Positions 11-62,703 of a stretch of DNA of 64,000 nucleotides are shown piece by piece. The stretch's first letter is position 1. Every line of letters starts with the position of its first letter. Below the pieces are notes generated by a model that was not told where the DNA came from, made no database searches, and was given only the letters and a program-made list of their open reading frames with translations. Origin of the DNA: Escherichia phage EPIMAM01. The stretch lies in the sequence record PQ493298; one strand, 5' to 3'. The position numbers and the translations under genes were made by a program.

Positions 11-2188
11 TTAGGCCGCAAGGGCCTTCATAGTTTTAGCGATTTGGGAAACTTCATCATCACTTAAAGAGTTGCGATAACCGATGAAGTCGGAAACAAT
101 ACGGAATTTCTTAGTAAACTCAGTAACCATTTTATCACTGTTTTTTGAAGCATTGTTTGATAATACATCAAAAAGATTAGTTACTGTCCAGATGTCATGG
201 CCGATGGTATCTTTTCCACCGTTGAAATATACACCCTGTAATGAACTAACCATATTAGCGAGTCGTGTATATTCTTCGGAAACTTCATCTACACTGAAGT
301 ACTTCATCATAAAATCTAACTCAGGATACTTAATAATTTTATCAATATATCGTTTAGCTGAACTTGAATAACCTACATACTTATCATAATCTACATCATC
401 AAAAGCATCTACATATAAATCACGCAGAGTTTCAAAAATACATTGGCACTGACCAAGTTCTTTTACCTTTTTCTGCAAAAGCGGACGAATAACATAAAAT
501 TCATTAATGCCAATAAGATTAGCCATACGAGTCAAAATACTCGTAGATGGATGACAAAGCGATGTAGTACCATCCATAGAAAAAATATCAGAACGATGCA
601 TATATGCTACATAACCAGTAATTTCATCTGCTTCTGATGTGAGTGTAAACAGTTCCTCTTTTTCCCAGCGTCCGTCTTTAATTTCAAACTTAAATGCAGT
701 AGCAGCTTTAGGACGAGGAGCTTTACTTTTAACTACCTTCGGAATATAACTTTTAACTAAAGCTTCAATTTCTGACAAATAATGAATGTTAACTTCATCA
801 CTTTCAAACATTGCCATAATATCAGGGAGTAAATCAATCTGCGATTCTACTTCCGGATTAATAAACAGAAGACGCTCATTATGATGAATATTCAAAGTGT
901 TGTTAAATTCTTTATCATCTAATGCATGCGCTAATCCACGGACAATATTAACACGATTTTTAATATTATCAATAACGATATTAATTTTTGTTGTATTAAT
1001 ACCAAACAGACGATAACTTGATGCAACGGCCGAAGTTTCATGACTTTGCTTAATGCGTTTCAGTCGAGGGTCAAGATTTACTTCATACACAACTCCTGCA
1101 TTGCATAACTTACTGTCAGGTTCAAACATGCTTTGCATCTTTTTATATGACAGATTTTTAGTCGTAAATTTGACTGAATTACTAATCATATAATCTCGAG
1201 CAGAATATCCCATCTTCATCAATTCACGGTATGTATGACGAGGAGATGTAGATTCTTTAAATCGTTTTACATCTTCATTGAATGCCTTCTCACTAAGCTC
1301 TTTAACACGCTCAATAATATTTTTACGAGTACGATCATCCAATGAAAGAGCTTCGCGTGATGGAGCAATATCAAGTGAACCCATTGGAAACTTAATGTAA
1401 TTCACTTCATTGCGGATGCTTAACCAGTTACGGTCTCTAATAACACCATCGATAGGATAAACAATACCACCATAGATAGCATACAATCCACCACGATCTG
1501 GCCAGTATCTTTCTGGATTTACGCCGTAATAGTCATCAAAATCCGGAAAATAATCAATTTCGCGGTCAAGACCATTAATGATAGCTAAATCTTTGAATGG
1601 TCGCATGATATAAGAAACTTCATAAGCAAAGTTTCTAAAGTCTTTTTCTTCAACTGGAACTACGATTTCAATACCAGTTTTATCATTTGGACCCATTTCT
1701 TTTACAAATGTAGGTTTAATTTGCGGACCATCACCATCCATGTAAGCTACATAACCGCGAATTTCACCTTTATGATACGAAGTAATACTAAATGTATCAG
1801 TATAACTAAACGGAGATTTAGAACCTAAACCAAATCCACCAATGAAATCGTTAGATTCAGCCTTAGATGAACTAAAGTATGAATTATACAACCCAGGAGA
1901 ATTATCATCACCTTGAATATCAAAATCGCTCATACCCGGACCAAAATCTCGGCAAACAAATCGCGGATCTAATCGTCCTGGAACTTGAATGATAAATTTT
2001 TCATGATTTCCATTGAGAGCATGGGCGTCAATCATGTTGGTAATCAATTCACGGACTACTGCGCGAATCTTGTTTGTATACAAATCAGATGACAGAATTT
2101 TAAATACTTTAGGATTTGCTGCGATGCTAAATGCTTTTGATTTAGAACCATTACCAAGAATTGTTTCTTTTTCAGTGGTGATAATCAT
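11..2188 (-). CDS. rIIA: rIIA protein (membrane-associated, Rex-exclusion target)
   Basis: Track ORF 725 aa; length, position and sequence match my memory of T4 rIIA. Confidence 0.88.
14..26 (-). terminator. GC stem-loop just 3' of rIIA stop
   Basis: ggccgcaagggcc inverted repeat immediately after the rIIA stop codon. Confidence 0.4.
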
Positions 2189-2198
2189 AATTTCCTCA

Positions 2199-2402
2199 TT
2201 AATTCATATTGCGTTTAATAACTTCAGCAACTTCTAGTAGTTCATCTTTAGTTGCGGTGTCGGATTGAATTTTATCTCTAATATCCTTAAAGCGGTTTTT
2301 AAACTCTTCGGCTTCTCCCATATCGAAAAAGCGTTGAATGATTCTATATTCTCGATGAACTGCTTTATCAAAAAGTTCTAAATTTACTTTATATGATTTC
2401 AT
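2199..2402 (-). CDS. small hypothetical protein (rIIA.1 position)
   Basis: Track ORF 67 aa, tightly packed between rIIA and gene 39. Confidence 0.55.
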
Positions 2403-2427
2403 TTCAATATCCTCATTTGCCCAATTA

Positions 2428-2457
2428 ATTATACCACATCCTTGTGGTAAAGTAAAC
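2428..2457 (-). promoter_or_regulatory. T4-type early promoter
   Basis: Minus strand GTTTAC, 18 nt spacer, TATAAT; same 30-bp cassette recurs at 46468..46497. Confidence 0.6.
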
Positions 2458-4277
2458 TATTGGCTCATCCATTCTTTACGAAGGTCAGCATTATCTCCCA
2501 TGAGCATTTCAAAAAGCTCTTTCCAGTTCTCAGGAAGTTTAACAACATCATATACTGGGTTTTGAATCATCTCACGATATTCAGATTTTTCCAAAGAGCC
2601 AAGTCCCTTAATATAACGGATGCTATGTTTAGGTAGAGCATCTTTGGCACTCTCATATTCAGCGACTGTATAAAACCATTCTTGTTTTTTACCGACCTGA
2701 GCGATGATTACAGGAGTTTTGACGAAACGAATTCTTCCTTGTTCAAACAGTTCTGGCCAATTACTAAAAAATCCGAGCAGAGAAGGATAAATGCTTCCTA
2801 GACCATCGTGATCAGCATCGGTCATAATAGCAATATTATGATAATTCAAGTTTTCAGCCTTTTCACCAAGAACTAATCCAGTGATTGCGCAAATATCAAA
2901 CAGTTCTTTGTTTTTAAGCATATCAGCATATGACATACCCCAACTGTTGAGAACTTTACCACGCAATGGATAACCACCATGAAGTTCTTTATCACGAACA
3001 TCAATAAGATATCCGATAGCAGAATCGCCCTCAGTCAAGAAAAGAGTAGTATCAGCATCTTTACCGCAAAGATTCGCTTTAATATGTTTATGAACCTTAG
3101 CTTTAGAAGCCTTTTTAGCTGCTTTAGTTTCTGCTGCCTTTTCTGCCGCCAATTTACGAGCCAAAGCAGCTTCAATAATTGGCATTAAAATTGCTTCATT
3201 ATTTAAAATAGCACGTGAAATCTTTTTAGCATCAAGCTGAATATGACTGCGAATTTCACCAAATGGAGAAGTCAAACGCTCTTTAGTTTGAGAATCAAAT
3301 CGCATGTTTTTCATATCACGAACAAACATGACGATAGTCAAACATTCTTTAACACGTGCTTTAGTTACATCAATTTTGAACTTACGTTTGATTTGTGGAA
3401 TAAGGTCTTCACAAATATCATCCATAACGCAGTCAATATGATGGCCACCATTCTTAGTATGAATGTTATTGACGTATGTTAATTGACGAAAACCATCAGG
3501 TGAACGACCAACAGCAATAGAACAATTTTCTTGTTCTTGAACAATAGCATGCTCATCATACTGGCGTGCATATTTCTTAAAATTACCCTGAACCTTTTTA
3601 CCATTAAAGGTAAATTGAATATCAGGATAAACTACTGCAAGTGTCTGGAGACGATCTAGTGTAATGTCAAGATAAACTTGAGATAGCTCATTAGTTTCAA
3701 ATGACATAAAATCAGGAATGAAAGTAACACGTGTTCCTTTCCATTTTCCAGGAATATCTTCCCATGATTTATTTTCCATGCCATTTGAACAACGAACTAC
3801 AATATTATTTTGACCGTCGCCAGTTTCACCGACAAACATCACAGAAAAAATGTTAGTTAAACTAGAACCAACACCGTTCATACCGCCAGTGACGCGTTCT
3901 TTGTCATCACCAAAGTTACCACCTGCTTTTGGAATAGTCCAGGCAGCAACAGGACCAGGAATTTCTTCACCAGTAGGTGTTTTAACCATCGCTTGTGGAA
4001 TACCACGACCGTTATCTTCAACTGTTACTTGATTGTTTTTGATAGTAACATTAATTTTATTCGCGAATTTAAACTTAGTACGAATACCTTCATCTACTGA
4101 GTTATCGATAATTTCATCAATAAGCTTAACAAGACCAGGTACATACTGAACACTTTCCCATTTACCAAACAGAAAGCGCTCATGCATTTCATTAGCGGAA
4201 GAGCCAATGTACATGCCGCTACGCTTTTTGATATGTTCAATATCGCTCAGAATTTTAATTTCATTCTTAATCATCAC
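2457..4277 (-). CDS. 39: DNA topoisomerase II large subunit, single uninterrupted ORF
   Basis: Track ORF 606 aa; GHKL ATPase motif EDNGRGIP and TOPRIM motif LTEGDSA; no split by a gene-60-type insert. Confidence 0.9.
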   Translation of the reverse strand: MMIKNEIKILSDIEHIKKRSGMYIGSSANEMHERFLFGKWESVQYVPGLVKLIDEIIDNSVDEGIRTKFKFANKINVTIKNNQVTVEDNGRGIPQAMVKTPTGEEIPGPVAAWTIPKAGGNFGDDKERVTGGMNGVGSSLTNIFSVMFVGETGDGQNNIVVRCSNGMENKSWEDIPGKWKGTRVTFIPDFMSFETNELSQVYLDITLDRLQTLAVVYPDIQFTFNGKKVQGNFKKYARQYDEHAIVQEQENCSIAVGRSPDGFRQLTYVNNIHTKNGGHHIDCVMDDICEDLIPQIKRKFKIDVTKARVKECLTIVMFVRDMKNMRFDSQTKERLTSPFGEIRSHIQLDAKKISRAILNNEAILMPIIEAALARKLAAEKAAETKAAKKASKAKVHKHIKANLCGKDADTTLFLTEGDSAIGYLIDVRDKELHGGYPLRGKVLNSWGMSYADMLKNKELFDICAITGLVLGEKAENLNYHNIAIMTDADHDGLGSIYPSLLGFFSNWPELFEQGRIRFVKTPVIIAQVGKKQEWFYTVAEYESAKDALPKHSIRYIKGLGSLEKSEYREMIQNPVYDVVKLPENWKELFEMLMGDNADLRKEWMSQ

Positions 4278-5162: not shown

Positions 5163-5576
5163 TTATTCCTTAAAGTGAGCTTTCAACATCTGATACAAAG
5201 ACCATGCCTGTACATTATTTTCAATAGTAATGTTCATAACCGGGAATTCAGATGGATCAGTTATTGTTGCAGATTCTTCCTGCTCTTCAGCTGCCTGGTA
5301 TGGATTTTCAACTTCATTAAAGAATTCAGCTTCATTCGATGAAAGCCAAATAAAATCTTCATCCAAAATATCTTTACCAGAAGATAGTACTAAATTTCCA
5401 GCAAATGACATAATTTTAATAGGACGCCCAAGAGCATCCACATCTAAAATTTTAAAAGGATGCATACCTAAACGGCGTGCATAGATTCCGTTATCAGTAT
5501 GGTCTTTAATAAAATTTTCTTGAGCTTGTTTATTTTTAAATTGATACCATTTATTAACTTCAAATTTAATAGCCAT
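5163..5576 (-). CDS. hypothetical early protein (goF position)
   Basis: Track ORF 137 aa; synteny only. Confidence 0.45.
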
Positions 5577-5791
5577 TAATAAATTTCCTTCCAGTAAGTT
5601 GTACCATCTTCAGTGATTTCACGAAATACACCGTAAATTGGTTGTTTATCCCCAACCTTTTCATACACATAAACCGAAGTCAAGTGAGTAAACTTAGCAG
5701 TGTGTTCCTTTTGAACTACTACCAAATCTGGATCGAATAACACATCTTCAAATTCGTCATTAGTGCAGCTCTGAACAATTTTACGTTTCAT
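5576..5791 (-). CDS. hypothetical early protein (cef position)
   Basis: Track ORF 71 aa; 1-nt overlap with the upstream ORF. Confidence 0.45.
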
Positions 5792-5890
5792 TACAATTTC
5801 CTCATTAATTGAACATTGGAGCGATGCGTTTCAGAAGAGTAGCAGCACCTTTGGCAAATTTTCCATTTTATTCTCCAAGTTATTTTCTAT

Positions 5891-10692: not shown

Positions 10693-11439
10693 TTATCCTC
10701 GGATAAGTTTAAAAATTGAACAATTTAGCGGGTATCCTCTTTTCAGTTTAAGTTTATCAATAAAAGACAAGTTTTGATACCGCTCTACACCTTGAATAAT
10801 TTTATCACACATATCATATTGCATTTCTGCTTCTGACAACTTTTTCACAGTTTTCCAATCCGAGCCTTTAAGAAGAACGTTCAATTTAACAACTTCAGTT
10901 CCTTCTGCTATACGAGAACCATCAATACGAGCTTTGAGTGCTACAATCGTTAGCTTAACGTCAGAGGTCTGTTTTGATTTAGAAAGCTGAGAAATGTGCT
11001 CAATTCGGTTTTCACGTTTTTTCTGTATAGCTTTAATTTGATTATAAGTCTTTTTGATTTTAGCCCATTTCTTTTCATCTAAATTTAGTTTATGAACTTT
11101 TTTCGCAGATGAACGACCAATTCGCAAAGCAAATAAATCACGCTTTTCAATCAACTCTTCTAAAGTATAATCAGAACGAAATGTATTGTACTTTTTCTTT
11201 ACTGCAATAACATTCCCTTTAATGTATCCAACGTTATTATCAAAACGTTCTAATGATAATTTCTCTCCTTCAATACGATTATCAAAAGGTTCTCCCGAGT
11301 AAGCGCAAACTTTCTGATCTAAAATGTTCTTAATGTAATTGAAGTCTAAGTTAAAATCTTTAGAACGTCTTTTAGCAGATGCCTGAGTGTGCTCTAGACG
11401 ACGTGTAATTTTACGAATTTGATTTTTAGACAGTTTCAT
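10693..11439 (-). CDS. srd: putative sigma-related early protein
   Basis: Track ORF 248 aa; basic; synteny with T4 srd; name assigned from memory. Confidence 0.5.
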   Translation of the reverse strand: MKLSKNQIRKITRRLEHTQASAKRRSKDFNLDFNYIKNILDQKVCAYSGEPFDNRIEGEKLSLERFDNNVGYIKGNVIAVKKKYNTFRSDYTLEELIEKRDLFALRIGRSSAKKVHKLNLDEKKWAKIKKTYNQIKAIQKKRENRIEHISQLSKSKQTSDVKLTIVALKARIDGSRIAEGTEVVKLNVLLKGSDWKTVKKLSEAEMQYDMCDKIIQGVERYQNLSFIDKLKLKRGYPLNCSIFKLIRG

Positions 11440-11469
11440 ATTTTTCTCACGGACGGGTTAACTACTTAT

Positions 11470-11499
11470 ACTATAACATTTTTACTTCAGTTTGTAAAC
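11470..11499 (-). promoter_or_regulatory. T4-type early promoter
   Basis: GTTTAC, 18 nt, TATAGT. Confidence 0.55.
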
Positions 11500-11555
11500 A
11501 ACTTTATGAAAAATGCTTTAAAACTTTCGTGGTATAATGAATCTAAGTCCTTCCA

Positions 11556-12158
11556 TTATAGATTAAATCCTTCAAAATCAAGAGTATAGATAGTGTATGT
11601 TGAATACTTTTTATACTCATATCTATCCGCAATTCTAAATACACTTCCAGCTGGTATCATTACTTCTTGTTCATCTGAAACTAATTCCATATTACGATAG
11701 CGATGGCTATCTGGAAACTTAAAACTTGGACTATATTCTTTACAGCGTAGAGCTTTTATAGCATACTCCTGGAAATTAAACACCATAGGAGCTTTGAATT
11801 CAAAAATAACTTGTGTGTTGTATTCTAATCCAGAAGCAAAATGTAGAGCTATATTTTTATCATATGAAGCTGATACTACTTTATCAAATGTAATAATATC
11901 AATTCCTTGATTTAACACCTGTTTAGTCTCAGCTGGAACACCTCTCCAAAGAGGTTTATCGTTTGGAACCAAACGAGATTTGACTATTTCATTTAACCAA
12001 GAATGATCGTCTGGTTTATTAGTAATACAATGAATTAAAAGTTCAATTTCAGATAAATTAAATCCTTCGGAAAGTAATTCTTCACGAATAGAAGCACGCA
12101 CGGATGCATCCATTGATTTGATTTTAAAATCTTTTAATTGCATTGCTGAATATTTCAT
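11556..12158 (-). CDS. modA: ADP-ribosyltransferase
   Basis: Track ORF 200 aa; R (LWRG), S-x-S (SAS) and EQEVMIP ART motifs; modA/modB assignment by size. Confidence 0.65.
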   Translation of the reverse strand: MKYSAMQLKDFKIKSMDASVRASIREELLSEGFNLSEIELLIHCITNKPDDHSWLNEIVKSRLVPNDKPLWRGVPAETKQVLNQGIDIITFDKVVSASYDKNIALHFASGLEYNTQVIFEFKAPMVFNFQEYAIKALRCKEYSPSFKFPDSHRYRNMELVSDEQEVMIPAGSVFRIADRYEYKKYSTYTIYTLDFEGFNL

Positions 12159-15253: not shown

Positions 15254-15463
15254 TTAAATTACATGACTATTTATAATAAATTCTTGCGGAACGTTAAAAT
15301 ACCCAATTTTAGTTAATATAACAACATCACCGTTAATAATTACCGGAGAATAATCGGCTGGAGCATTAAACTTCCAATGAGCTCTAATATTATATCCATC
15401 AGAACCAAATGCTCGACTAGCCGGTCTCCCGGCTTTTTGCCATGCATAAAAATCAAATTTCAT
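15254..15463 (-). CDS. small hypothetical protein
   Basis: Track ORF 69 aa. Confidence 0.45.
   Translation of the reverse strand: MKFDFYAWQKAGRPASRAFGSDGYNIRAHWKFNAPADYSPVIINGDVVILTKIGYFNVPQEFIINSHVI
15268..15275 (-). promoter_or_regulatory. late promoter box TATAAATA upstream of soc
   Basis: Exact TATAAATA on the minus strand about 30 nt upstream of the soc ATG. Confidence 0.55.
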
Positions 15464-16249: not shown

Positions 16250-16450
16250 ATGGTACAAAAATTAATGGCACTTGTCGATGCCATAAAAGGTAATAAAAAA
16301 CGTATAGCTTTTACTATTTCTGCTATGGTAGGAATTTTACTCTGGAATTTTATTTTATCACCAATTGCTATTGCTCATGGTGTTAATATTCCAGTAATTA
16401 CTCTTGATACATTCGTAGATTTAGCATTTGCTTTGGTTGGGTTAATTTAA
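16250..16450 (+). CDS. candidate small hydrophobic protein on the opposite strand
   Basis: Track ORF 66 aa; AAGGAGG 4 nt before ATG; two predicted hydrophobic helices; only plus-strand candidate in an intergenic region. Confidence 0.3.
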   Translation: MVQKLMALVDAIKGNKKRIAFTISAMVGILLWNFILSPIAIAHGVNIPVITLDTFVDLAFALVGLI

Positions 16451-17475
16451 ATCTTAGCATATTTAGATAGCCGCATTTTAGCCATCAACCCTTGGGCAAT
16501 ATTATTTTTCATATATTCCATAATTTGTTTAGGGGTTGCACCTTCCTTTCTAATCATATCATTAACATCTTTTGATTTCCAGGGAGATTTATCCCAAAAC
16601 ATAACCCTTTCTCCTGCATCAACTAATTTAGTCATTCGTTTAATAGTGTCAGGGTGACGAGGTTCATTATCTAAAACCCACACACGTCTATCTTTAAATG
16701 GAACAATTTCTAGGTCTAATTGACCACCCGTAATAGCTATACCATTTTCAATAAAAAGTGAATCTATAGGTCCTTCTAGAACATATACATCACCATCTTT
16801 GACTCGTTCGACTCCATAGATTTTTGTTGCCTCAGGATAAGCTTTGATGGTGATATATTTTTGAGGAGCATCTTTCTTTAATGCACGTCCTTGAAAAGAC
16901 TCGGCTTTTCCGTTAGCATTATAAATTGGAATAACAAGACGAGGCTCAGGTATTTCCTTTTTATATGTTCCTGGCGCTATGCTATTAACTAATTTAGGCC
17001 ATTCGGTTGTAAACCAAAGATATTTCCATTTATCCTTTGGAATACAACGAGCTTTTACATATTTTATAATTGGATGGTCTTCCGCCAGTTTATCTAATCT
17101 AATGCATGACGGAAGAGATTTAATTATTTTCTTCTCAGGTTGTTTAGGAAGTTCTTTAGGTTTTTCTACTGGACGACTTTTACCTTTTTCTTTTCTTATT
17201 TCAAAGATATACTCACGATATAAATCAGGTTCAAACTCCTTTAAATATATTCCGATTGGTGCATGATAGTTACAGTTATAACAATGAATATTTCCTTCAT
17301 TATTATCGCCATAATACCATCCACGGGCTTTATTTTGGTCGGTTTTTGAATCTCCACAAACAGGACATCTAAACCGTAATTTAAAAGTTGAACTATTATT
17401 TACTTGTGCGAATTTAGGTAAATGAGCCAATGCACGGTATGCAAACTCATTATCAATCCAAGGTATTGATGACAT
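16447..17475 (-). CDS. 61: DNA primase
   Basis: Track ORF 342 aa; zinc ribbon CPVCGDS...CYNC plus TOPRIM; matches T4 gp61. Confidence 0.9.
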   Translation of the reverse strand: MSSIPWIDNEFAYRALAHLPKFAQVNNSSTFKLRFRCPVCGDSKTDQNKARGWYYGDNNEGNIHCYNCNYHAPIGIYLKEFEPDLYREYIFEIRKEKGKSRPVEKPKELPKQPEKKIIKSLPSCIRLDKLAEDHPIIKYVKARCIPKDKWKYLWFTTEWPKLVNSIAPGTYKKEIPEPRLVIPIYNANGKAESFQGRALKKDAPQKYITIKAYPEATKIYGVERVKDGDVYVLEGPIDSLFIENGIAITGGQLDLEIVPFKDRRVWVLDNEPRHPDTIKRMTKLVDAGERVMFWDKSPWKSKDVNDMIRKEGATPKQIMEYMKNNIAQGLMAKMRLSKYAKI

Positions 17476-17477
17476 TT

Positions 17478-17642
17478 TTACTCTTCTTTTTCTTTAGATT
17501 CCTCTTTTTTCTTTTTAGGAATCTGTTCAGGACCTTTATTTACTACAGCACCTGACGTTGTTCCAGTGGAGATATTTTCAGGATTACCACCTGAATCTCC
17601 AGCTACCATATCTTCTTTAATAAATTCTTTATATGTTTTCAT
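17478..17642 (-). CDS. small ORF with internal-protein-like capsid targeting N-terminus
   Basis: 54-aa ORF below track cutoff; N-terminus MKTYKEFIKE resembles the IP CTS MKTYQEFI; GAGG SD; stop 2 nt before the gene 61 ATG. Confidence 0.4.
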   Translation of the reverse strand: MKTYKEFIKEDMVAGDSGGNPENISTGTTSGAVVNKGPEQIPKKKKEESKEKEE

Positions 17643-17643
17643 A

Positions 17644-18000
17644 TTAACCTCTATTCATAAAAGCATTAAAAATTTGGTCATCAATCGATGGAATAGCAAC
17701 TTTTTCTGCATCATTTAGCAAATCATTAATTTCATCAGATAGCATAACGCATGTACCTTTATTTCCTGTAATTGTTACTGCACAATTACGAACGTTTTCT
17801 TTATCAAATTTTAGGTTAATATTTTCGTAGTGAAAATCCTTTAATGCCGAATATATTTTTAAAATGAAATTGTCTTTTACTACAATAAACCCAACCTCAC
17901 TATTAAAACGCGGTTCATGGAAACTGTAATAAACCTTTTCATCTATAAAATCGTATGAAATTTTTTCCATTTTTAAATATGAAAATTCAGAACTATACAT
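17644..18000 (-). CDS. hypothetical protein
   Basis: Track ORF 118 aa. Confidence 0.5.
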   Translation of the reverse strand: MYSSEFSYLKMEKISYDFIDEKVYYSFHEPRFNSEVGFIVVKDNFILKIYSALKDFHYENINLKFDKENVRNCAVTITGNKGTCVMLSDEINDLLNDAEKVAIPSIDDQIFNAFMNRG

Positions 18001-18012
18001 ACTAACCTCTAA

Positions 18013-18306
18013 TTACTCACCTACCACTTCAGCGATGATATTTTTATTATTAAAGTTTTTATCGCAATACAGAACATAATTATACTGCATTACACCGCCA
18101 GACTTAAGCTGTTTTTGCACTTCAGCTTTCATTTCAGGACGATCACGCTCAACGATATTCATAATATCTGCTTCAATTTGAGTTTCAACTTCAGTCTGAT
18201 CTGCAGTCATAGACCATTCACACAAATCTTTGTCATAACCCGCCATAGCAGGCTGAGCAGCGCAAGAAGATAAAGCAAAAATTGTAGCAAAGATAAATTT
18301 TTTCAT
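18013..18306 (-). CDS. sp: periplasmic superinfection-exclusion protein Spackle-like
   Basis: Track ORF 97 aa; cleavable signal peptide; size and position match T4 Sp. Confidence 0.65.
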   Translation of the reverse strand: MKKFIFATIFALSSCAAQPAMAGYDKDLCEWSMTADQTEVETQIEADIMNIVERDRPEMKAEVQKQLKSGGVMQYNYVLYCDKNFNNKNIIAEVVGE

Positions 18307-18334
18307 GATAATCTCCTCAGTAGTTTATGTTTAT

Positions 18335-18364
18335 ATAGTATCTCAATTTCCAATAAAAGTAAAC
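18335..18364 (-). promoter_or_regulatory. T4-type early promoter
   Basis: GTTTAC, 18 nt, TACTAT. Confidence 0.5.
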
Positions 18365-18366
18365 AA

Positions 18367-18666
18367 TTATTTTAAAACTTCTGCATAATCACATGTTACA
18401 AACTGTTTCTCTAACTTGACGATTTTACGAAAGTATCTTTTGCATTGGCGAATCTGCCGCTTTGTAGGGCGTACAGCAAACTTAATAAATTCCACTCGAC
18501 CAAATGGAGGACTTTCTTCTGCTGGAATATCTAACACCAATTCCCACGTATCTGTAATAAGTGCTTTGAATTGAGTATTTTTCCTGACATTATACGGAGT
18601 AGGTTTAAATAAAACAATATGCATATTATCCTCGGCAATCCACTTCACATACTTTCTTGTCATCAA
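18367..18666 (-). CDS. hypothetical protein
   Basis: Track ORF 99 aa; overlaps the upstream ORF. Confidence 0.45.
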   Translation of the reverse strand: MMTRKYVKWIAEDNMHIVLFKPTPYNVRKNTQFKALITDTWELVLDIPAEESPPFGRVEFIKFAVRPTKRQIRQCKRYFRKIVKLEKQFVTCDYAEVLK

Positions 18667-18808
18667 TGAAAGCTTTAACTAATGCTTTATTAACTTCAGC
18701 GTATTGATTAGTAGCCCATTGAACGTCATCTTTCATCATTGTGATTTCTTTAGTAAACATGCTTTCGTTCTTAAACCACCCCATAAAAACTACCTTTACC
18801 AATTCCAT
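18626..18808 (-). CDS. dmd: Dmd-like antitoxin (discriminator of mRNA degradation)
   Basis: Track ORF 60 aa; size and position next to gene 41 match T4 Dmd from memory. Confidence 0.5.
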   Translation of the reverse strand: MELVKVVFMGWFKNESMFTKEITMMKDDVQWATNQYAEVNKALVKAFIDDKKVCEVDCRG

Positions 18809-18866
18809 AACAATCTCCTCATTTAACCAACAAGACTACTATACCATAGTCTTGTTGGCTTGTAAA

Positions 18867-20294
18867 CTAAAATTTTAATTCATTTGCCAAAGCATCTAAC
18901 TGAGCTCGAGCAGATTCGTTTCTTTGATAGCGATTCTGTTCAGCCTGAATCTGCTGTGAACCTGCTACTTCGTTCACTTCAGTTGGAGTAGAATCTTGTT
19001 CAATTTCTACCCATTTCTGATTTCCTTTTTGAACACCCATCAAAAACTTATTCCATTTATTCTTATCACCATATCGTGATTTGATTTGCTTAATGAGTTG
19101 TTGTTCAGCAGCTGCTAGCTCCTCGGTTTCAATGACCGCAAGCATAAAATCGGCTGTTGCTGGAAGGCCGGCAGATTCTGCAATATCGCTCATGTTAACA
19201 TCAGAAGAGTCCCAAGCTTGTTTACCAACCTGTGCTGCGGTCCAAAGAACAGTTTCGGTTTCAACAGCCAGAGCACGCAATTCCTCTGCGATAGCTTTAA
19301 CAGTTGTGTAACTATTTTCTGAATAAACTCTAATGCGGCAAGATTTACAAATACCCAGATAGTCAACAATAATGATTGTTGGAACAAAATTCTTCTTGAG
19401 CTTTAATTCATTCAAAAGAGAACGAAATGTATTAGCGTCTGCTCCACCGGTAGGATATTGTTTAACGATTAAACGGCCGAGAGTAGATTTCTCACGCCAT
19501 TTTTCCATTTTTCCTTTATACTCAGCGTAAGAAATATGCCCATCATCAATGTCATCAAGAGAAACATCAAGCATATTAGCATCAATACGCTTAGCACAGA
19601 CTTCTTCTGCCATTTCCATGGAAATGTAAAGAACATTATGTCCGAGCTGCAAATAATCTGCTGCCAATGAACACAGACCTAATGACTTACCGACGTTAAC
19701 ACCAGCCATTAAAACGTTCAGTGTTCCAGTTTCAGCTCCACCTTTAGTAATTTTATTTAGAATTTTGAGTCTAAATGGAACCTTACGAGCTTTATTCATA
19801 TAAGATAGCCAACGTGCTTCGTAGTCATCCATCCAATCATGACCAACGTAACTATCAAATGAAATTGATAATGCTTGGCGCATGATGTCAGGAATAGCAC
19901 CTACATCTGGCATTTTCTTATTTCGTTTTTCCGGAGGAAGCTCAGCATTAGTTTGAATTTCAATTATTTTAGACGTAGCATTAAACATCGCCCTTTGCTG
20001 AACATATTTTTCTGTTTCTTTTACTAACCAGCTGTGGTCTTCCGGAGAATCGGCTAGTTTTGAAATAAGTGTTTTTACACCAGAATATTCTGTTTCAGTA
20101 AATGAACTATTTTCTAATGCAACATTTAACGCATTAATAGATGGAACGCTATGGTATTCATTAACATGAGATTTAATTAATTTGAATGTATTTTTAGCTG
20201 GACCACTTTCAAAATATTCTGAATCCATATATGGCCAAACTTTTGAAAAATAAGCTTGATCAAATATGAGATGGGAAAGAATAATTTCTACCAC
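18867..20294 (-). CDS. 41: replicative DnaB-like helicase
   Basis: Track ORF 475 aa; Walker A GVNVGKS; matches T4 gp41. Confidence 0.92.
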   Translation of the reverse strand: MVEIILSHLIFDQAYFSKVWPYMDSEYFESGPAKNTFKLIKSHVNEYHSVPSINALNVALENSSFTETEYSGVKTLISKLADSPEDHSWLVKETEKYVQQRAMFNATSKIIEIQTNAELPPEKRNKKMPDVGAIPDIMRQALSISFDSYVGHDWMDDYEARWLSYMNKARKVPFRLKILNKITKGGAETGTLNVLMAGVNVGKSLGLCSLAADYLQLGHNVLYISMEMAEEVCAKRIDANMLDVSLDDIDDGHISYAEYKGKMEKWREKSTLGRLIVKQYPTGGADANTFRSLLNELKLKKNFVPTIIIVDYLGICKSCRIRVYSENSYTTVKAIAEELRALAVETETVLWTAAQVGKQAWDSSDVNMSDIAESAGLPATADFMLAVIETEELAAAEQQLIKQIKSRYGDKNKWNKFLMGVQKGNQKWVEIEQDSTPTEVNEVAGSQQIQAEQNRYQRNESARAQLDALANELKF

Positions 20295-29440: not shown

Positions 29441-30127
29441 TTAAAAGTCGTGGGTAGAATCAGCTTCAAGAGCTACTACATAATTCGCGTGTTCACCTTC
29501 AAATTTAGCAGCGCCTTGTTTGCCTTTTGCCCAAAGCAGAAGTTTGTAATTTCCTGGTTGCATTTTCATATTTGCCATATTGATAATGAAATTAAATGTA
29601 TTTTCACCATCATAATCACCAAGAGTCAAAGAATATTTAACGCGAGTCAAAGCAGAATCTTCTACTTTATTAAAACCGTTAATTACGATTTTACCTTCTT
29701 TTACTGTGATAGCAATTGTATCAATCTGCAGACCACGAGATACACGCAACAGTTGTTGAAGGTCTTCAGCTTTAATTTCAGTAACAACAGATGCTACCGG
29801 GAATGGAATTGGTTTATTAGGAGCAACTACTGTACTCGGATCGGCTGCTGGCCAAAAAATTGTTGAACGAGCATCAGCAATTTTAATATTTCCATCTTCT
29901 GACTGGGAAATTTCTGCATCGTCATTAACTAGGGACAGAATACCGAGAAAACCGTTCAAATCGTAAATTGCTACATCAAAATCAATGGTGTCGGAAATAT
30001 TTGCTTCCGCATAAGTTGTACCATTAACTGCGCGAGTCATAATAAATTGACCAGATTTAAGCATAATGCCAGAGTTAATAGTAGCGAAATTTTTAAGCAG
30101 AGCAGTAGTATCTTTAGACAGTTTCAT
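29441..30127 (-). CDS. 45: sliding clamp
   Basis: Track ORF 228 aa; matches T4 gp45. Confidence 0.9.
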   Translation of the reverse strand: MKLSKDTTALLKNFATINSGIMLKSGQFIMTRAVNGTTYAEANISDTIDFDVAIYDLNGFLGILSLVNDDAEISQSEDGNIKIADARSTIFWPAADPSTVVAPNKPIPFPVASVVTEIKAEDLQQLLRVSRGLQIDTIAITVKEGKIVINGFNKVEDSALTRVKYSLTLGDYDGENTFNFIINMANMKMQPGNYKLLLWAKGKQGAAKFEGEHANYVVALEADSTHDF

Positions 30128-30151
30128 GTAATTTCCTTCAATTCAAGTGAG

Positions 30152-30177
30152 ATTTAATTTTATAACTAATTTAATAA
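30152..30177 (-). promoter_or_regulatory. middle promoter upstream of gene 45
   Basis: MotA box TTGCTTTA, 12 nt spacer, TAAAAT on the minus strand. Confidence 0.5.
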
Positions 30178-30182
30178 AGCAA

Positions 30183-30572
30183 TTAACGATTAAAATCGGC
30201 AGCAATTGTTTCCGCAACAAGTTGAGCAGCAACAATTAGACGTTCATCTGCATTACCGCAATAATCATCTTCAAGGCGTTCACCACACGAAGTCATAATA
30301 AATTTAGCACCAGCGTTTAAAGATTCTGTCGTATGTTTGCGCATTAGTTCAATCCATTTATTACTTACTTCACGATCGATAGCTTCATAATACGCATGAC
30401 GAGCAGGTGCAGATTTAATTTTGTTCTGAATAACTTCCATCGCGTTATCAGAAAGAGACAAAACCCATGCTCGACGAATTTTATTTTGGTTTTGTGGATT
30501 TGAATCAGAACGCACGTGTTTTGGCTGAATATCTTTTACATCAACAGTATAATTCACAGTAATTTTAGTCAT
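30183..30572 (-). CDS. rpbA: RNA polymerase binding protein RpbA
   Basis: Track ORF 129 aa; size and position match T4 RpbA. Confidence 0.65.
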
Positions 30573-60310: not shown

Positions 60311-60691
60311 TCAATTAGAAAATAAATTTATCCAAGATTGTTCTTTAATTAAAAATGGCTCAGAATCATATGCCATCAAACTTTGGGTGATTAGTCCTTT
60401 AAAAGGTCCATCAATAAATTCCATGGTAAAATATGGAATTTTATTCATTAATCTTGCATTAGGAGCAGTGCACAAAACTCTGCATCCTTTGAATACGCCT
60501 TTTTGTAATTTGTATTGCTTAGGATAAAATTCGCTCAAGACGTTGTTATTTGCCAAAATTTCAAAATGATTCACCAATTTATTTTTAATAGTTTTTGGCG
60601 AAAAATAAAGATATTCGAAAAGTTGCGTGTCTGTCATCATTGCATCCCAATTACGAAAAACTGCGGACGAGTAATACCACCGATGCAGCAT
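60311..60691 (-). CDS. hypothetical protein
   Basis: Track ORF 126 aa. Confidence 0.45.
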   Translation of the reverse strand: MLHRWYYSSAVFRNWDAMMTDTQLFEYLYFSPKTIKNKLVNHFEILANNNVLSEFYPKQYKLQKGVFKGCRVLCTAPNARLMNKIPYFTMEFIDGPFKGLITQSLMAYDSEPFLIKEQSWINLFSN

Positions 60692-61227
60692 TTACTATTG
60701 CAACAGTATTGTACAGTTTCAATATGAATATCGTAAATTTTATCCATATCAGGAGATTTAACAGGCTCATCGATTATATACAGAATTCGAGAAAGCGTTA
60801 AACCTCTGAACTTGCTACCTCTATTACCAACAAAACTACGGACAGAATCAGTAAATAAACGGAATCGAATATCATCGCTAGAATAACGAGAAAATTCTTT
60901 TTTAATGTGGTCCGCAGAAATTTTAGCGTAAGATGAAGTATTAGAAAGAACAATAACTGTTCCACCGTCATACAACCAATTAGCAGCAAAGTTAGTCACA
61001 GCAATTGATTTACCGGATTGACGTCCACCATCTAGTCGAAGTGTGCAGTATTCTTTAAATAAATGTGGCGAATCAGGTACATAAAATCCACTATTACAAA
61101 TTTCTTCTACTCTAGCATCAGAATGGTGTGTAAAAGCATTCATCAGGGATAGATAAGGACCAGTTAAAAATGTTCTCATTTTGTTATCTCTAAATTTGGG
61201 CCATTCCATGGCGCATGAATTTTCCAT
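60637..61227 (-). CDS. putative P-loop NTPase
   Basis: Track ORF 196 aa; Walker A GGRQSGKS and Walker-B-like ILYIIDEP; start probably internal. Confidence 0.45.
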
Positions 61228-61741
61228 TTCTGTATTTACCCATTACCGCACTTGGGCTCGACCTTATTACAGGTTGGCGGGAATCCCTCATAGAATCATG
61301 AGGTCCAGCTTGTTCCCATGTTATTTGAATGTAAATATTTTTGCCGTAATACTTATACCAGTGTGGCTTCATTAAAATTTTTTCATAGAGTCGCTGTTGA
61401 CTCAATTTAATAGCTGATTTGCATGGATTATAATCATTTTTCCATTCTGCTGGAATATCGCTGATGTCAGGAACTTCAGTATCTTTTATACTAAACCCAC
61501 GTTTTAAGCATTCCATTATAATGTCTGATTGACGCTTTCGCAAAAATTCTAACTTATCGTAAAAGAACGTGACATGACCAGAACCTAAAATAAACTCGGA
61601 AGATATTTTAAAATCTTTAACCCGTTTACCATTTGCCACGTGTTTACGAACTATACCAAAAACACGTGGCAATTCACGGTATTCCGCAATTAAATGTTGG
61701 TCAGCAAGTTCAGATACTAAAGTCAAATTAATACGAGTCAT
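61190..61741 (-). CDS. denV: pyrimidine dimer DNA glycosylase (endonuclease V) with C-terminal extension
   Basis: Track ORF 183 aa; first 137 residues match T4 DenV, then about 45 extra low-complexity residues. Confidence 0.8.
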
Positions 61742-61798: not shown

Positions 61799-62101
61799 TT
61801 ATTTACCTTTAATTACTTTAGCTGCTTCGATAGCCGCTTGCTGAAGGTCATCCATAGACATACCGAATTTAGAAGCAAAGTTATCAATTTTCTTTTCGAC
61901 AGCATTCAAAGGCTTGGCCTGTTTACCTTCATTAGCGCCAGGAAGAGCGAGAATACGCTCTTTGTCAATATAAAGGCTTACAAGTTTCTTACGGTCTTTA
62001 TCGGACAAATCGTGAAATGAATGGGCCTTTTTATTTATAGCGGCTTCTAATTTACCTGCACTCACTCGCGCTTCAGTAATAAATTCTTGATATGTTTTCA
62101 T
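61799..62101 (-). CDS. ipII: internal protein II
   Basis: Track ORF 100 aa; capsid targeting N-terminus MKTYQEFITEA. Confidence 0.85.
   Translation of the reverse strand: MKTYQEFITEARVSAGKLEAAINKKAHSFHDLSDKDRKKLVSLYIDKERILALPGANEGKQAKPLNAVEKKIDNFASKFGMSMDDLQQAAIEAAKVIKGK

Positions 62102-62172: not shown

Positions 62173-62703
<531 letters not shown>

Follow-up and report, generated by a model that had tools for sequence, protein, structure and literature searches.

We find that gene 61.1, a small gene lying beside the DNA primase gene, codes for a protein whose body is identified by sequence comparison as a module homologous to the capsid protein gp23, running from just ahead of the gp23 maturation cut, through the N-fist, to the start of the N-arm. 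In the phage studied here, this module is entered through a leader that closely resembles the T4 internal proteins' capsid-targeting sequence. Gp61.1 probably has a part in head assembly or serves as a mimic of the capsid protein, and the most likely reading, to which we would give a probability of roughly 40%, is that it would be recruited to the prohead core and cleaved by the prohead protease gp21. The gene itself was already known; that its product is a lineage-matched mimic of the maturation site of gp23 is what we infer here, and no such proposal was found in the literature searched.

Gene 61.1 and its distribution among the T4-type phages

The window analysed here is a stretch of 64,000 nucleotides from Escherichia phage EPIMAM01 (sequence record PQ493298). 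Within it, an open reading frame of 54 codons plus stop occupies 17478..17642 on the minus strand, and its product reads MKTYKEFIKEDMVAGDSGGNPENISTGTTSGAVVNKGPEQIPKKKKEESKEKEE. The initial annotation had pointed to this ORF, to its GAGG Shine-Dalgarno sequence and to its position 2 nt ahead of the primase gene, leaving out the strand. The ORF proves to be real, with many stops on the plus strand across the same interval; the GAGG is found at 17651..17648 (minus strand), 5 nt 5' of the ATG at 17642; and the stop codon TAA (17480..17478, minus strand) is indeed separated by 2 nt from the ATG of gene 61, which codes for the 342-aa DNA primase (16447..17475, minus strand). So narrow a gap makes translational coupling of 61.1 and 61 probable. 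On the other side, a variant of gene 61.2 (118 aa; 17644..18000, minus strand) has its stop 1 nt ahead of the 61.1 ATG. Three parts can be delineated in the ORF, all on the minus strand. Codons 1-10 (17613..17642) specify MKTYKEFIKE, a leader resembling the targeting sequence and ending in a gp21-type I-K-E, as judged from its likeness to ipII, a shuffle test and the positions of the known determinants. Residues 6-46 (17505..17627) make up the module homologous to gp23 61-101, which takes in the cleavage site, the N-fist and, as far as the RR pair, the beginning of the N-arm, as established by BLASTP, the match to PDB sequences and hhalign. Residues 43-54 (17481..17516) form a Lys-rich tail, KKKKEESKEKEE, defined from family alignments.

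Over 2 kb the window is 100% identical to the Tequatrovirus Escherichia phage PBM-1, in which the ORF is annotated as the hypothetical protein PBM1_033; in T4 and many relatives it is gene 61.1. Its earlier description as unannotated thus applied to that reader's own track only, since GenBank holds it under both names. T4 gp61.1 and the window protein share 96% identity and differ by Y4F and T26I, and the profile phrog_1823, a PHROG that carries no assigned function, matches residues 1-54 of 54 with an E-value of 7e-34. Conservation in T-even genomes had been proposed as a check on the ORF, and the gene is present in T4, in many relatives and, by tblastn, in about 1400 phage records (1396 with a homologue), whose hosts include Escherichia, Klebsiella, Acinetobacter and Aeromonas; in the record of phage fPS-65 the homologue bears the label T4 GC1491. 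An exhaustive profile search resolved the family into 50 clusters at the 50% identity level. These results identify the ORF as T4 gene 61.1 and show it to be a protein-coding gene conserved among T4-type phages, which rules out a chance ORF.

The literature searched yielded no paper addressing what 61.1 does. Neither the short nor the long form of the family matches a model in Pfam or NCBIfam, and the PHROGs yielded, beyond function-less families, N-terminal matches, marginal at E 0.076, to a family named 'internal virion protein'. The 'ATPase' M9_035, listed as a homologue of the phiM12 family member M12_456, was given no weight, the listed identity of 18.4% being too low to trust. The PBM-1 record itself (PV029540.1) is given as "complete" at 121,301 bp, about 45 kb below other Tequatrovirus genomes (165-170 kb), and represents either an incomplete assembly or a genome with large deletions.

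Homology of the module to the N-terminal region of gp23

BLASTP aligned residues 2-38 of 61.1 with residues 57-93 of T4 gp23 at 43% identity (E 1e-8), and gp23 is the best match of 61.1 among all PDB sequences. When a profile of 49 family members was compared by hhalign with a profile of gp23 N-termini, residues 6-46 of 61.1 were aligned with gp23 61-101 with a probability of 97.9% and an E-value of 5e-13. One of the tblastn matches of 61.1 lies inside gene 23 itself, and some of the records of homologues say "major capsid protein". This label is an over-annotation, as the proteins show no match to the Gp23 domain (PF07068) or the HK97 fold; the mislabelling of 61.1 homologues in several records is hereby corrected. 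Since the Pfam Gp23 model spans gp23 residues 88-517, and so starts only at residue 88, 61.1 has no match to it.

In these alignments, E10 of 61.1 coincides with E65 of gp23, the residue preceding the gp21 cut (E65|A66), and residues 11-35 coincide with the 25-residue N-fist of mature gp23. The GDHGY of gp23 corresponds to GDSGG in 61.1, and the two proteins part after the GP motif, which is followed by the Lys-rich tail in 61.1 as against VMGMVRR and the Gol region in gp23. Residues 66-105 of gp23 are disordered in the unexpanded head, where they are believed to sit within the shell and touch the scaffolding core; after expansion, the N-terminal region docks on four neighbouring subunits and helps to build the Soc binding site. 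The motif recognized by gp21 is L/I-x-E (reviewed in PMC9026906). In the 61.1 family the aligned P1 position is Glu in 62 of 62 representatives, and the aligned P3 position is L, I, V, M, F or Y in 57 of the 62. The residue following the predicted cut is Asp in the window protein as opposed to Ala in ipII, ipIII and gp23; it is Asp or Glu in 32 of 62 family members, which counts against packaging.

In gp23, the point at which the mimic stops is precisely the start of the highly conserved Gol/EF-Tu-binding region. This boundary favours the main rival explanation, by which gp61.1 would be a cytoplasmic mimic or decoy that is made early and ties up some factor, keeping it from binding the N-terminal region of newly synthesized gp23. 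Its candidate partners are a host sensor of capsid protein, EF-Tu (through the Gol/Lit pathway), a host protease or chaperone, and free gp21 or gp22. We regard such a role as possible, if rather unlikely: the hydrophobic-x-Glu motif and the targeting-type leader would have no obvious use in the cytoplasm, and further points on both sides are taken up below with the evidence that bears on them.

The leader and the capsid-targeting sequence

The likeness of the leader to the capsid-targeting sequence of ipII, noticed in the initial annotation, is borne out by direct comparison: the leader is identical to the start of the window's own ipII (61799..62101, minus strand; MKTYQEFITE) at 8 of 10 residues and, in the DNA, at 27 of 30 nucleotides, and the regions 5' of the two genes are unrelated to each other. 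Among all Met-started decapeptides in the six frames of the window, those of ipII and 61.1 are the only ones identical to the targeting sequence at six or more of the 10 positions; in 200 shuffled controls the mean number of decapeptides at this level was 0.095, and none reached 7 of 10 or more. The likeness is thus not due to chance.

The first 10 residues of IPIII suffice for incorporation into the head (PMC9026906), and mutagenesis has shown targeting to depend mainly on residues 4 and 7 and processing on residues 8 and 10 (reviewed in PMC9026906). At these positions 61.1 has Y4 (F4 in T4), F7, I8 and E10. Both the targeting determinants (4 and 7) and the gp21 determinants (I8 and E10, in I8-K9-E10) are therefore present, and the leader departs from IPII and IPIII at positions 5 and 9 only. 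In IPIII, a change of E10 to D prevents cleavage and spares targeting. At the sequence level, then, the leader shows every feature that experiments have defined as necessary for capsid targeting. The earlier interpretation of the ORF as coding for a head-targeted protein stands to the extent that determinants 4, 7, 8 and 10 are kept and that E10 aligns with E65 of gp23; it had missed that the body is a copy from gp23. To the anti-restriction internal proteins, with which it was also compared, there is no similarity, and the predicted mature peptide of 44 residues would have a net charge of about -2.

Positions 4, 7, 8 and 10 of the targeting sequence are aromatic, aromatic, aliphatic and Glu, respectively, and find their counterparts in F59, F62, L63 and E65 of gp23. 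The classical targeting sequence may accordingly imitate the end of the gp23 propeptide, an idea that we did not come across in the literature searched.

Leaders of the type MKSF[KT][DEQ][FL]V..E also open other proteins in distant T4-type phages. RB43 uvsW.1 starts with MKSFTEFVNE|A (about 5566..5796 of the RB43 segment), and a 277-aa P-loop protein of the same phage starts with MKSFKDFVSLDE|A (10918..11751 of the RB43 segment, minus strand). A phiM12 gene situated between the portal and protease genes starts with MKSFKQLVE (29851..30258, minus strand) and is probably a prohead-core gene, and a further protein with a targeting-type leader is encoded at 2197..2610 of the HTVC008M segment. Such leaders are either widespread cargo tags or merely a common N-terminus in T4-type phages.

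The surroundings of ipII in the window differ from those in T4. The lysozyme gene e (62173..62667, minus strand) and ipII are 71 nt apart, where T4 has ipIII between them, so that this phage lacks ipIII. A denV-like ORF at 61190..61741 (minus strand) codes for 183 aa as against 138 aa in T4, and its C-terminal extension overlaps an ORF at 60637..61227; a frameshift, a fusion or a sequencing error may account for the extra length.

Architecture and predicted structure of the family

Members of the family come in two forms. The short forms are 50-90 aa in length, many of them starting with MK[TS]F.[DE]F and some having a linker ahead of the module. In the long forms, of 120-250 aa, the module is C-terminal and lies behind a conserved domain of about 110 aa. 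Long forms are present in RB43 (166 aa), Ac42, Acj133, KVP40-type phages, Aeromonas CC2-type phages and Mosigvirus, which is closely related to T4. Neither the window nor the head-gene region of T4 was matched by an HMM of the N-terminal domain of the long forms (hereafter N-domain); hence, the T-even phages lack that domain. The module is strongly conserved, with 18 invariant positions (alignment A1), and tail and leader are variable, which is the pattern expected of selection acting on the protein. The C-terminal tail, variable in sequence, is Lys/Arg-rich in all members across the family alignments. T6-type 61.1 (62 aa) has a frameshifted yet Lys-rich tail, KKKKRNLKKKKSKNVINTLD, that runs into gene 61; it looks like the result of slippage in an A-rich run, suggesting that the basic character of the tail is all that is constrained.

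In Mosigvirus, the module of the long form is almost identical to the T-even one. The T-even ORF might then be a vestige, namely the leftover 3' end of a long form, held open for reinitiation on gene 61 and giving a functionless peptide, and the 2-nt gap to the primase ATG and the lack of detection of the T4 protein would agree with this. Against such an origin, short forms are found in many diverged lineages with the module strongly conserved at its 18 invariant positions, and the leader is non-random and matches the targeting determinants. We consider it very improbable that 61.1 is a mere remnant.

AlphaFold predicts the short form to be disordered save for a helix at residues 4-11 (pLDDT 61). 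For the long form it predicts a folded stretch at residues 10-70 (pLDDT 79-87) and a disordered module (pLDDT below 50). On its own, 61.1 is therefore predicted to be disordered, like the same part of gp23 in the unexpanded prohead. The N-domain of the long forms, being conserved and folded, is more than a mere targeting tag, and this counts against packaging. A search of the PDB with the long-form model gave no fold match, and a search of BFVD returned only uncharacterised phage proteins, some of 387-913 aa. The N-domain lies inside these longer proteins, A0A411BBR2 (672 aa, 37% identity) being one example, and PHROG 18642 has the N-domain alone in common with the long forms.

Similarity of the module to the gp23 of the same phage

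Among 7 phages of the Straboviridae, 61.1 was no more identical to the gp23 of its own phage than to that of the other phages (P 0.37 and 0.15), in a comparison that has no power because the gp23 N-fist is too conserved in this group. In distant lineages the N-terminus of gp23 differs, and the 61.1-type gene differs along with it. In phiM12, gp23 reads LLQE|AAPTTNTGNI...PVL..RR (in a longer view, LLQE|AAPTTNTGNIATYDPVLISLVRR), and the C-terminus of phiM12_456, an N-domain protein encoded two genes 5' of the primase gene, reads VEVE|GSAVPSTNTGNI...PVLKRK (in a longer view, VEVE|GSAVPSTNTGNIPDTVAKKSPVLKRKEK); just 1 of 2000 shuffles attained the observed score of this module against its own gp23. 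The gp23 of the pelagiphage HTVC008M has FLGE|IANVTGSAV, to be compared with MKTFTDF...QQE|DIANVAGDGAV...KKKK in a neighbouring product, and the observed score was attained by 10 of 2000 shuffles. In the Stenotrophomonas phage DLP_6, gp23 has LLGE|AAPTNQTGANI...ITLVRRSMP and the N-domain protein has INE|DGAPTNAAGGGNI...AILVRRSKP. Here, Smith-Waterman comparison with default gap costs gave no significant result (74 of 1000 shuffles), and comparison of a chosen region with relaxed gap costs gave 3 of 3000, a figure from a test designed post hoc and suggestive only. Module and gp23 scores across lineages were low, at background level, throughout the score matrix. The module of phiM12 thus matches the gp23 of its own phage, and those of DLP_6 and HTVC008M do so more weakly.

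That the copy is matched to the capsid protein of its own phage points towards a function that requires the likeness. A lineage-specific match to the N-terminus of its own gp23 is also what a decoy would need, for in that case the gene would have to follow its own capsid protein in order to go on fitting the partner that both have in common. Against the decoy stands the reach of the family, which together with its position near the primase gene is kept from T4 to phiM12, DLP_6 and the pelagiphage, whose hosts and defence repertoires are very different, whereas dedicated counter-defence genes are usually patchy in distribution.

Expression and genomic neighbourhood

The order of the genes around 61.1 is 41, dmd, 61.4, sp, 61.2, 61.1 and 61. 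A consensus scan detected an early-promoter-like site 5' of dmd, at 18838..18866 on the minus strand (TTTACA-17-TATAGT with TG, 10 of 12 matches), and an early promoter has been reported 5' of dmd in T4. The site is likely to start a dmd-61.4-sp-61.2-61.1-61 transcript; nothing resembling a terminator intervenes before gene 61, and an Rfam scan of 16400..19000 returned nothing. No late promoter of the form TATAAATA was found near 61.1, the nearest ones on the minus strand being at 15268 and 55947.

In a time-resolved proteome of T4 infection, 61.1 is classed as early at the mRNA level and its protein escaped detection (class 'NA'), and Dmd, 61.4 and Sp were detected in the same study. Both the early-only mRNA and the absence of the protein from data in which its neighbours were seen count against packaging, as do the lack of a late promoter nearby, the position in the replication module throughout the family and the counter-defence neighbours in T4. 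In time-resolved proteome data T4 ipII and ipIII combine early RNA with late protein, so early transcription of 61.1 does not by itself exclude packaging; the late protein accumulation that is a trait of ipII and ipIII was not found for T4 61.1. One mass spectrometry study of T4 heads showed IPII, IPIII, Alt, gp20, gp23 and gp24 and did not mention 61.1, and M12_456 has no detection flag in the phiM12 proteome.

Several of these observations are what one would expect of a decoy: early transcription with an early-promoter-like site and no late promoter, the failure to see 61.1 in virion and infection proteome data of T4 and phiM12, and the company of dmd, tifA (61.4) and adfA (61.2, anti-DarT), all of which inhibit host toxin systems in T4. 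Their products resemble gp61.1 in being small early proteins of the same probable operon. They differ from it in that they share no homology with it and are specific toxin inhibitors with a patchy distribution, as opposed to the T4-superfamily-wide 61.1.

The neighbourhood also raises the prospect of an accessory role in the replication module, with the N-domain or the basic tail acting together with the primase-helicase or with DNA, and the likeness to gp23 being an old duplication of no present role. The family adjoins the primase gene or lies within a few genes of it in RB43, Ac42, KVP40-type phages, Aeromonas phages, Mosigvirus, phiM12 and DLP_6, often between 41 and 61. This placement, the probable translational coupling to the primase gene, early expression and the Lys/Arg-rich tail common to all members are in keeping with such a role. 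It would leave the likeness to each lineage's own gp23 unexplained, along with the invariant Glu of the cleavage site; moreover, the T-even phages lack the N-domain, and searches of Pfam, NCBIfam and PDB folds revealed no similarity of the family to known replication proteins. A replication accessory accordingly strikes us as improbable.

Three features of the neighbourhood vary among phages or overlap the genes discussed here. The 118-aa 61.2 of the window and the 208-aa 61.2 (adfA) of T4 have only their last ~14 residues in common (SIDDQIFNAFMNRG), from which it follows that in this phage the anti-DarT gene is mosaic or has been replaced by a gene of the RB32ORF033c type. A small gene of the RB32ORF030w type, annotated in PBM-1 as PBM1_031, overlaps the 3' end of the primase gene at about 16250..16450 on the plus strand (16949..17149 in the coordinates of the record). 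In the record of Mosigvirus SA79RD, a rho-independent terminator (1954..1983) lies between the genes for long-form 61.1 and primase, as against the 2-nt spacing in the window.

A putative role in the prohead core

In our preferred reading, the protein would be taken up by the prohead core and cut by gp21. Gp61.1 would resemble the part of gp23 that faces the core and would, in addition, carry a targeting-type leader, and the two together point to recruitment to the core of the assembling prohead. The prohead protease gp21 would then cut gp61.1 after Glu10, much as it cuts gp23 after Glu65, releasing a 44-residue peptide with a start like that of mature gp23 and a Lys-rich end. This product might either persist as a minor internal peptide alongside the DNA or exit via the pores of the capsomers. 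In the long forms, the same cut would part the folded 110-aa N-terminal domain from the mimic. Framed more broadly, 61.1 could be a co-evolving copy of a gp23 segment that either goes into the prohead core, there to act on the protease as its substrate or its regulator, or shields nascent capsid protein from a host factor, a proposal that we advance with considerable doubt.

Comparison with known head proteins sharpens what would set gp61.1 apart. It shares with IPI, IPII and IPIII (Mullaney and Black 1996, reviewed in PMC9026906) the MKTY.EFI.E leader with the same residues at positions 4, 7, 8 and 10 and its I-x-E end, as well as a Lys-rich region after the leader. Unlike the internal proteins, its gene sits in the early 41-61 cluster rather than in the internal-protein locus, and its body is a gp23 copy, with a mature charge of about -2, rather than an internal-protein fold. 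The internal proteins vary between close relatives (PMC9026906), whereas the 61.1 family is far more widely conserved. On paper, 61.1 is thus like a head protein bearing a capsid-targeting sequence, although its membership in this class is putative and its expression pattern differs. With gp23 it has in common the homology over 61-101, the conserved Glu at the cut and a region that is disordered when undocked; it lacks the HK97-fold body.

Like gp61.1, the T4 proteins gp67 and gp68 are small, and once inside the scaffolding core they are reduced to peptides by gp21, which cuts at L/I-x-E. They show no sequence similarity to it, and their genes are late and located between the portal and protease genes, in contrast to the early 61.1 near the primase gene. 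The head proteins of SPN3US and phiKZ offer a parallel to the long forms in that propeptides of more than 100 residues are cut off by a prohead protease, comparable to the ~110 aa and the protease-type motif of the latter. The long forms differ in combining a conserved folded N-terminal part with a short disordered C-terminal mimic, and cleavage in them is only predicted.

Implications for T4-type phages

For vaccines and delivery vectors, T4 heads are loaded with foreign proteins by means of the capsid-targeting sequence. The way in which proteins are sorted into the T4 scaffolding core was still called mysterious in a review of 2023. If the correspondence between the targeting sequence and the end of the gp23 propeptide is true, it would supply a molecular rationale for this sorting. 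In this regard, 61.1 is a natural mini-protein that joins a leader to a copy of the gp23 cleavage site and N-fist, and could serve as a probe for recognition by the scaffold and by gp21. If it is instead a decoy, 61.1 would represent a widely conserved viral answer to the sensing of capsid protein by the host. On both views, a testable hypothesis is now at hand for a gene that was among the last in the well-studied 41-61 region of T4 to lack an assignment.
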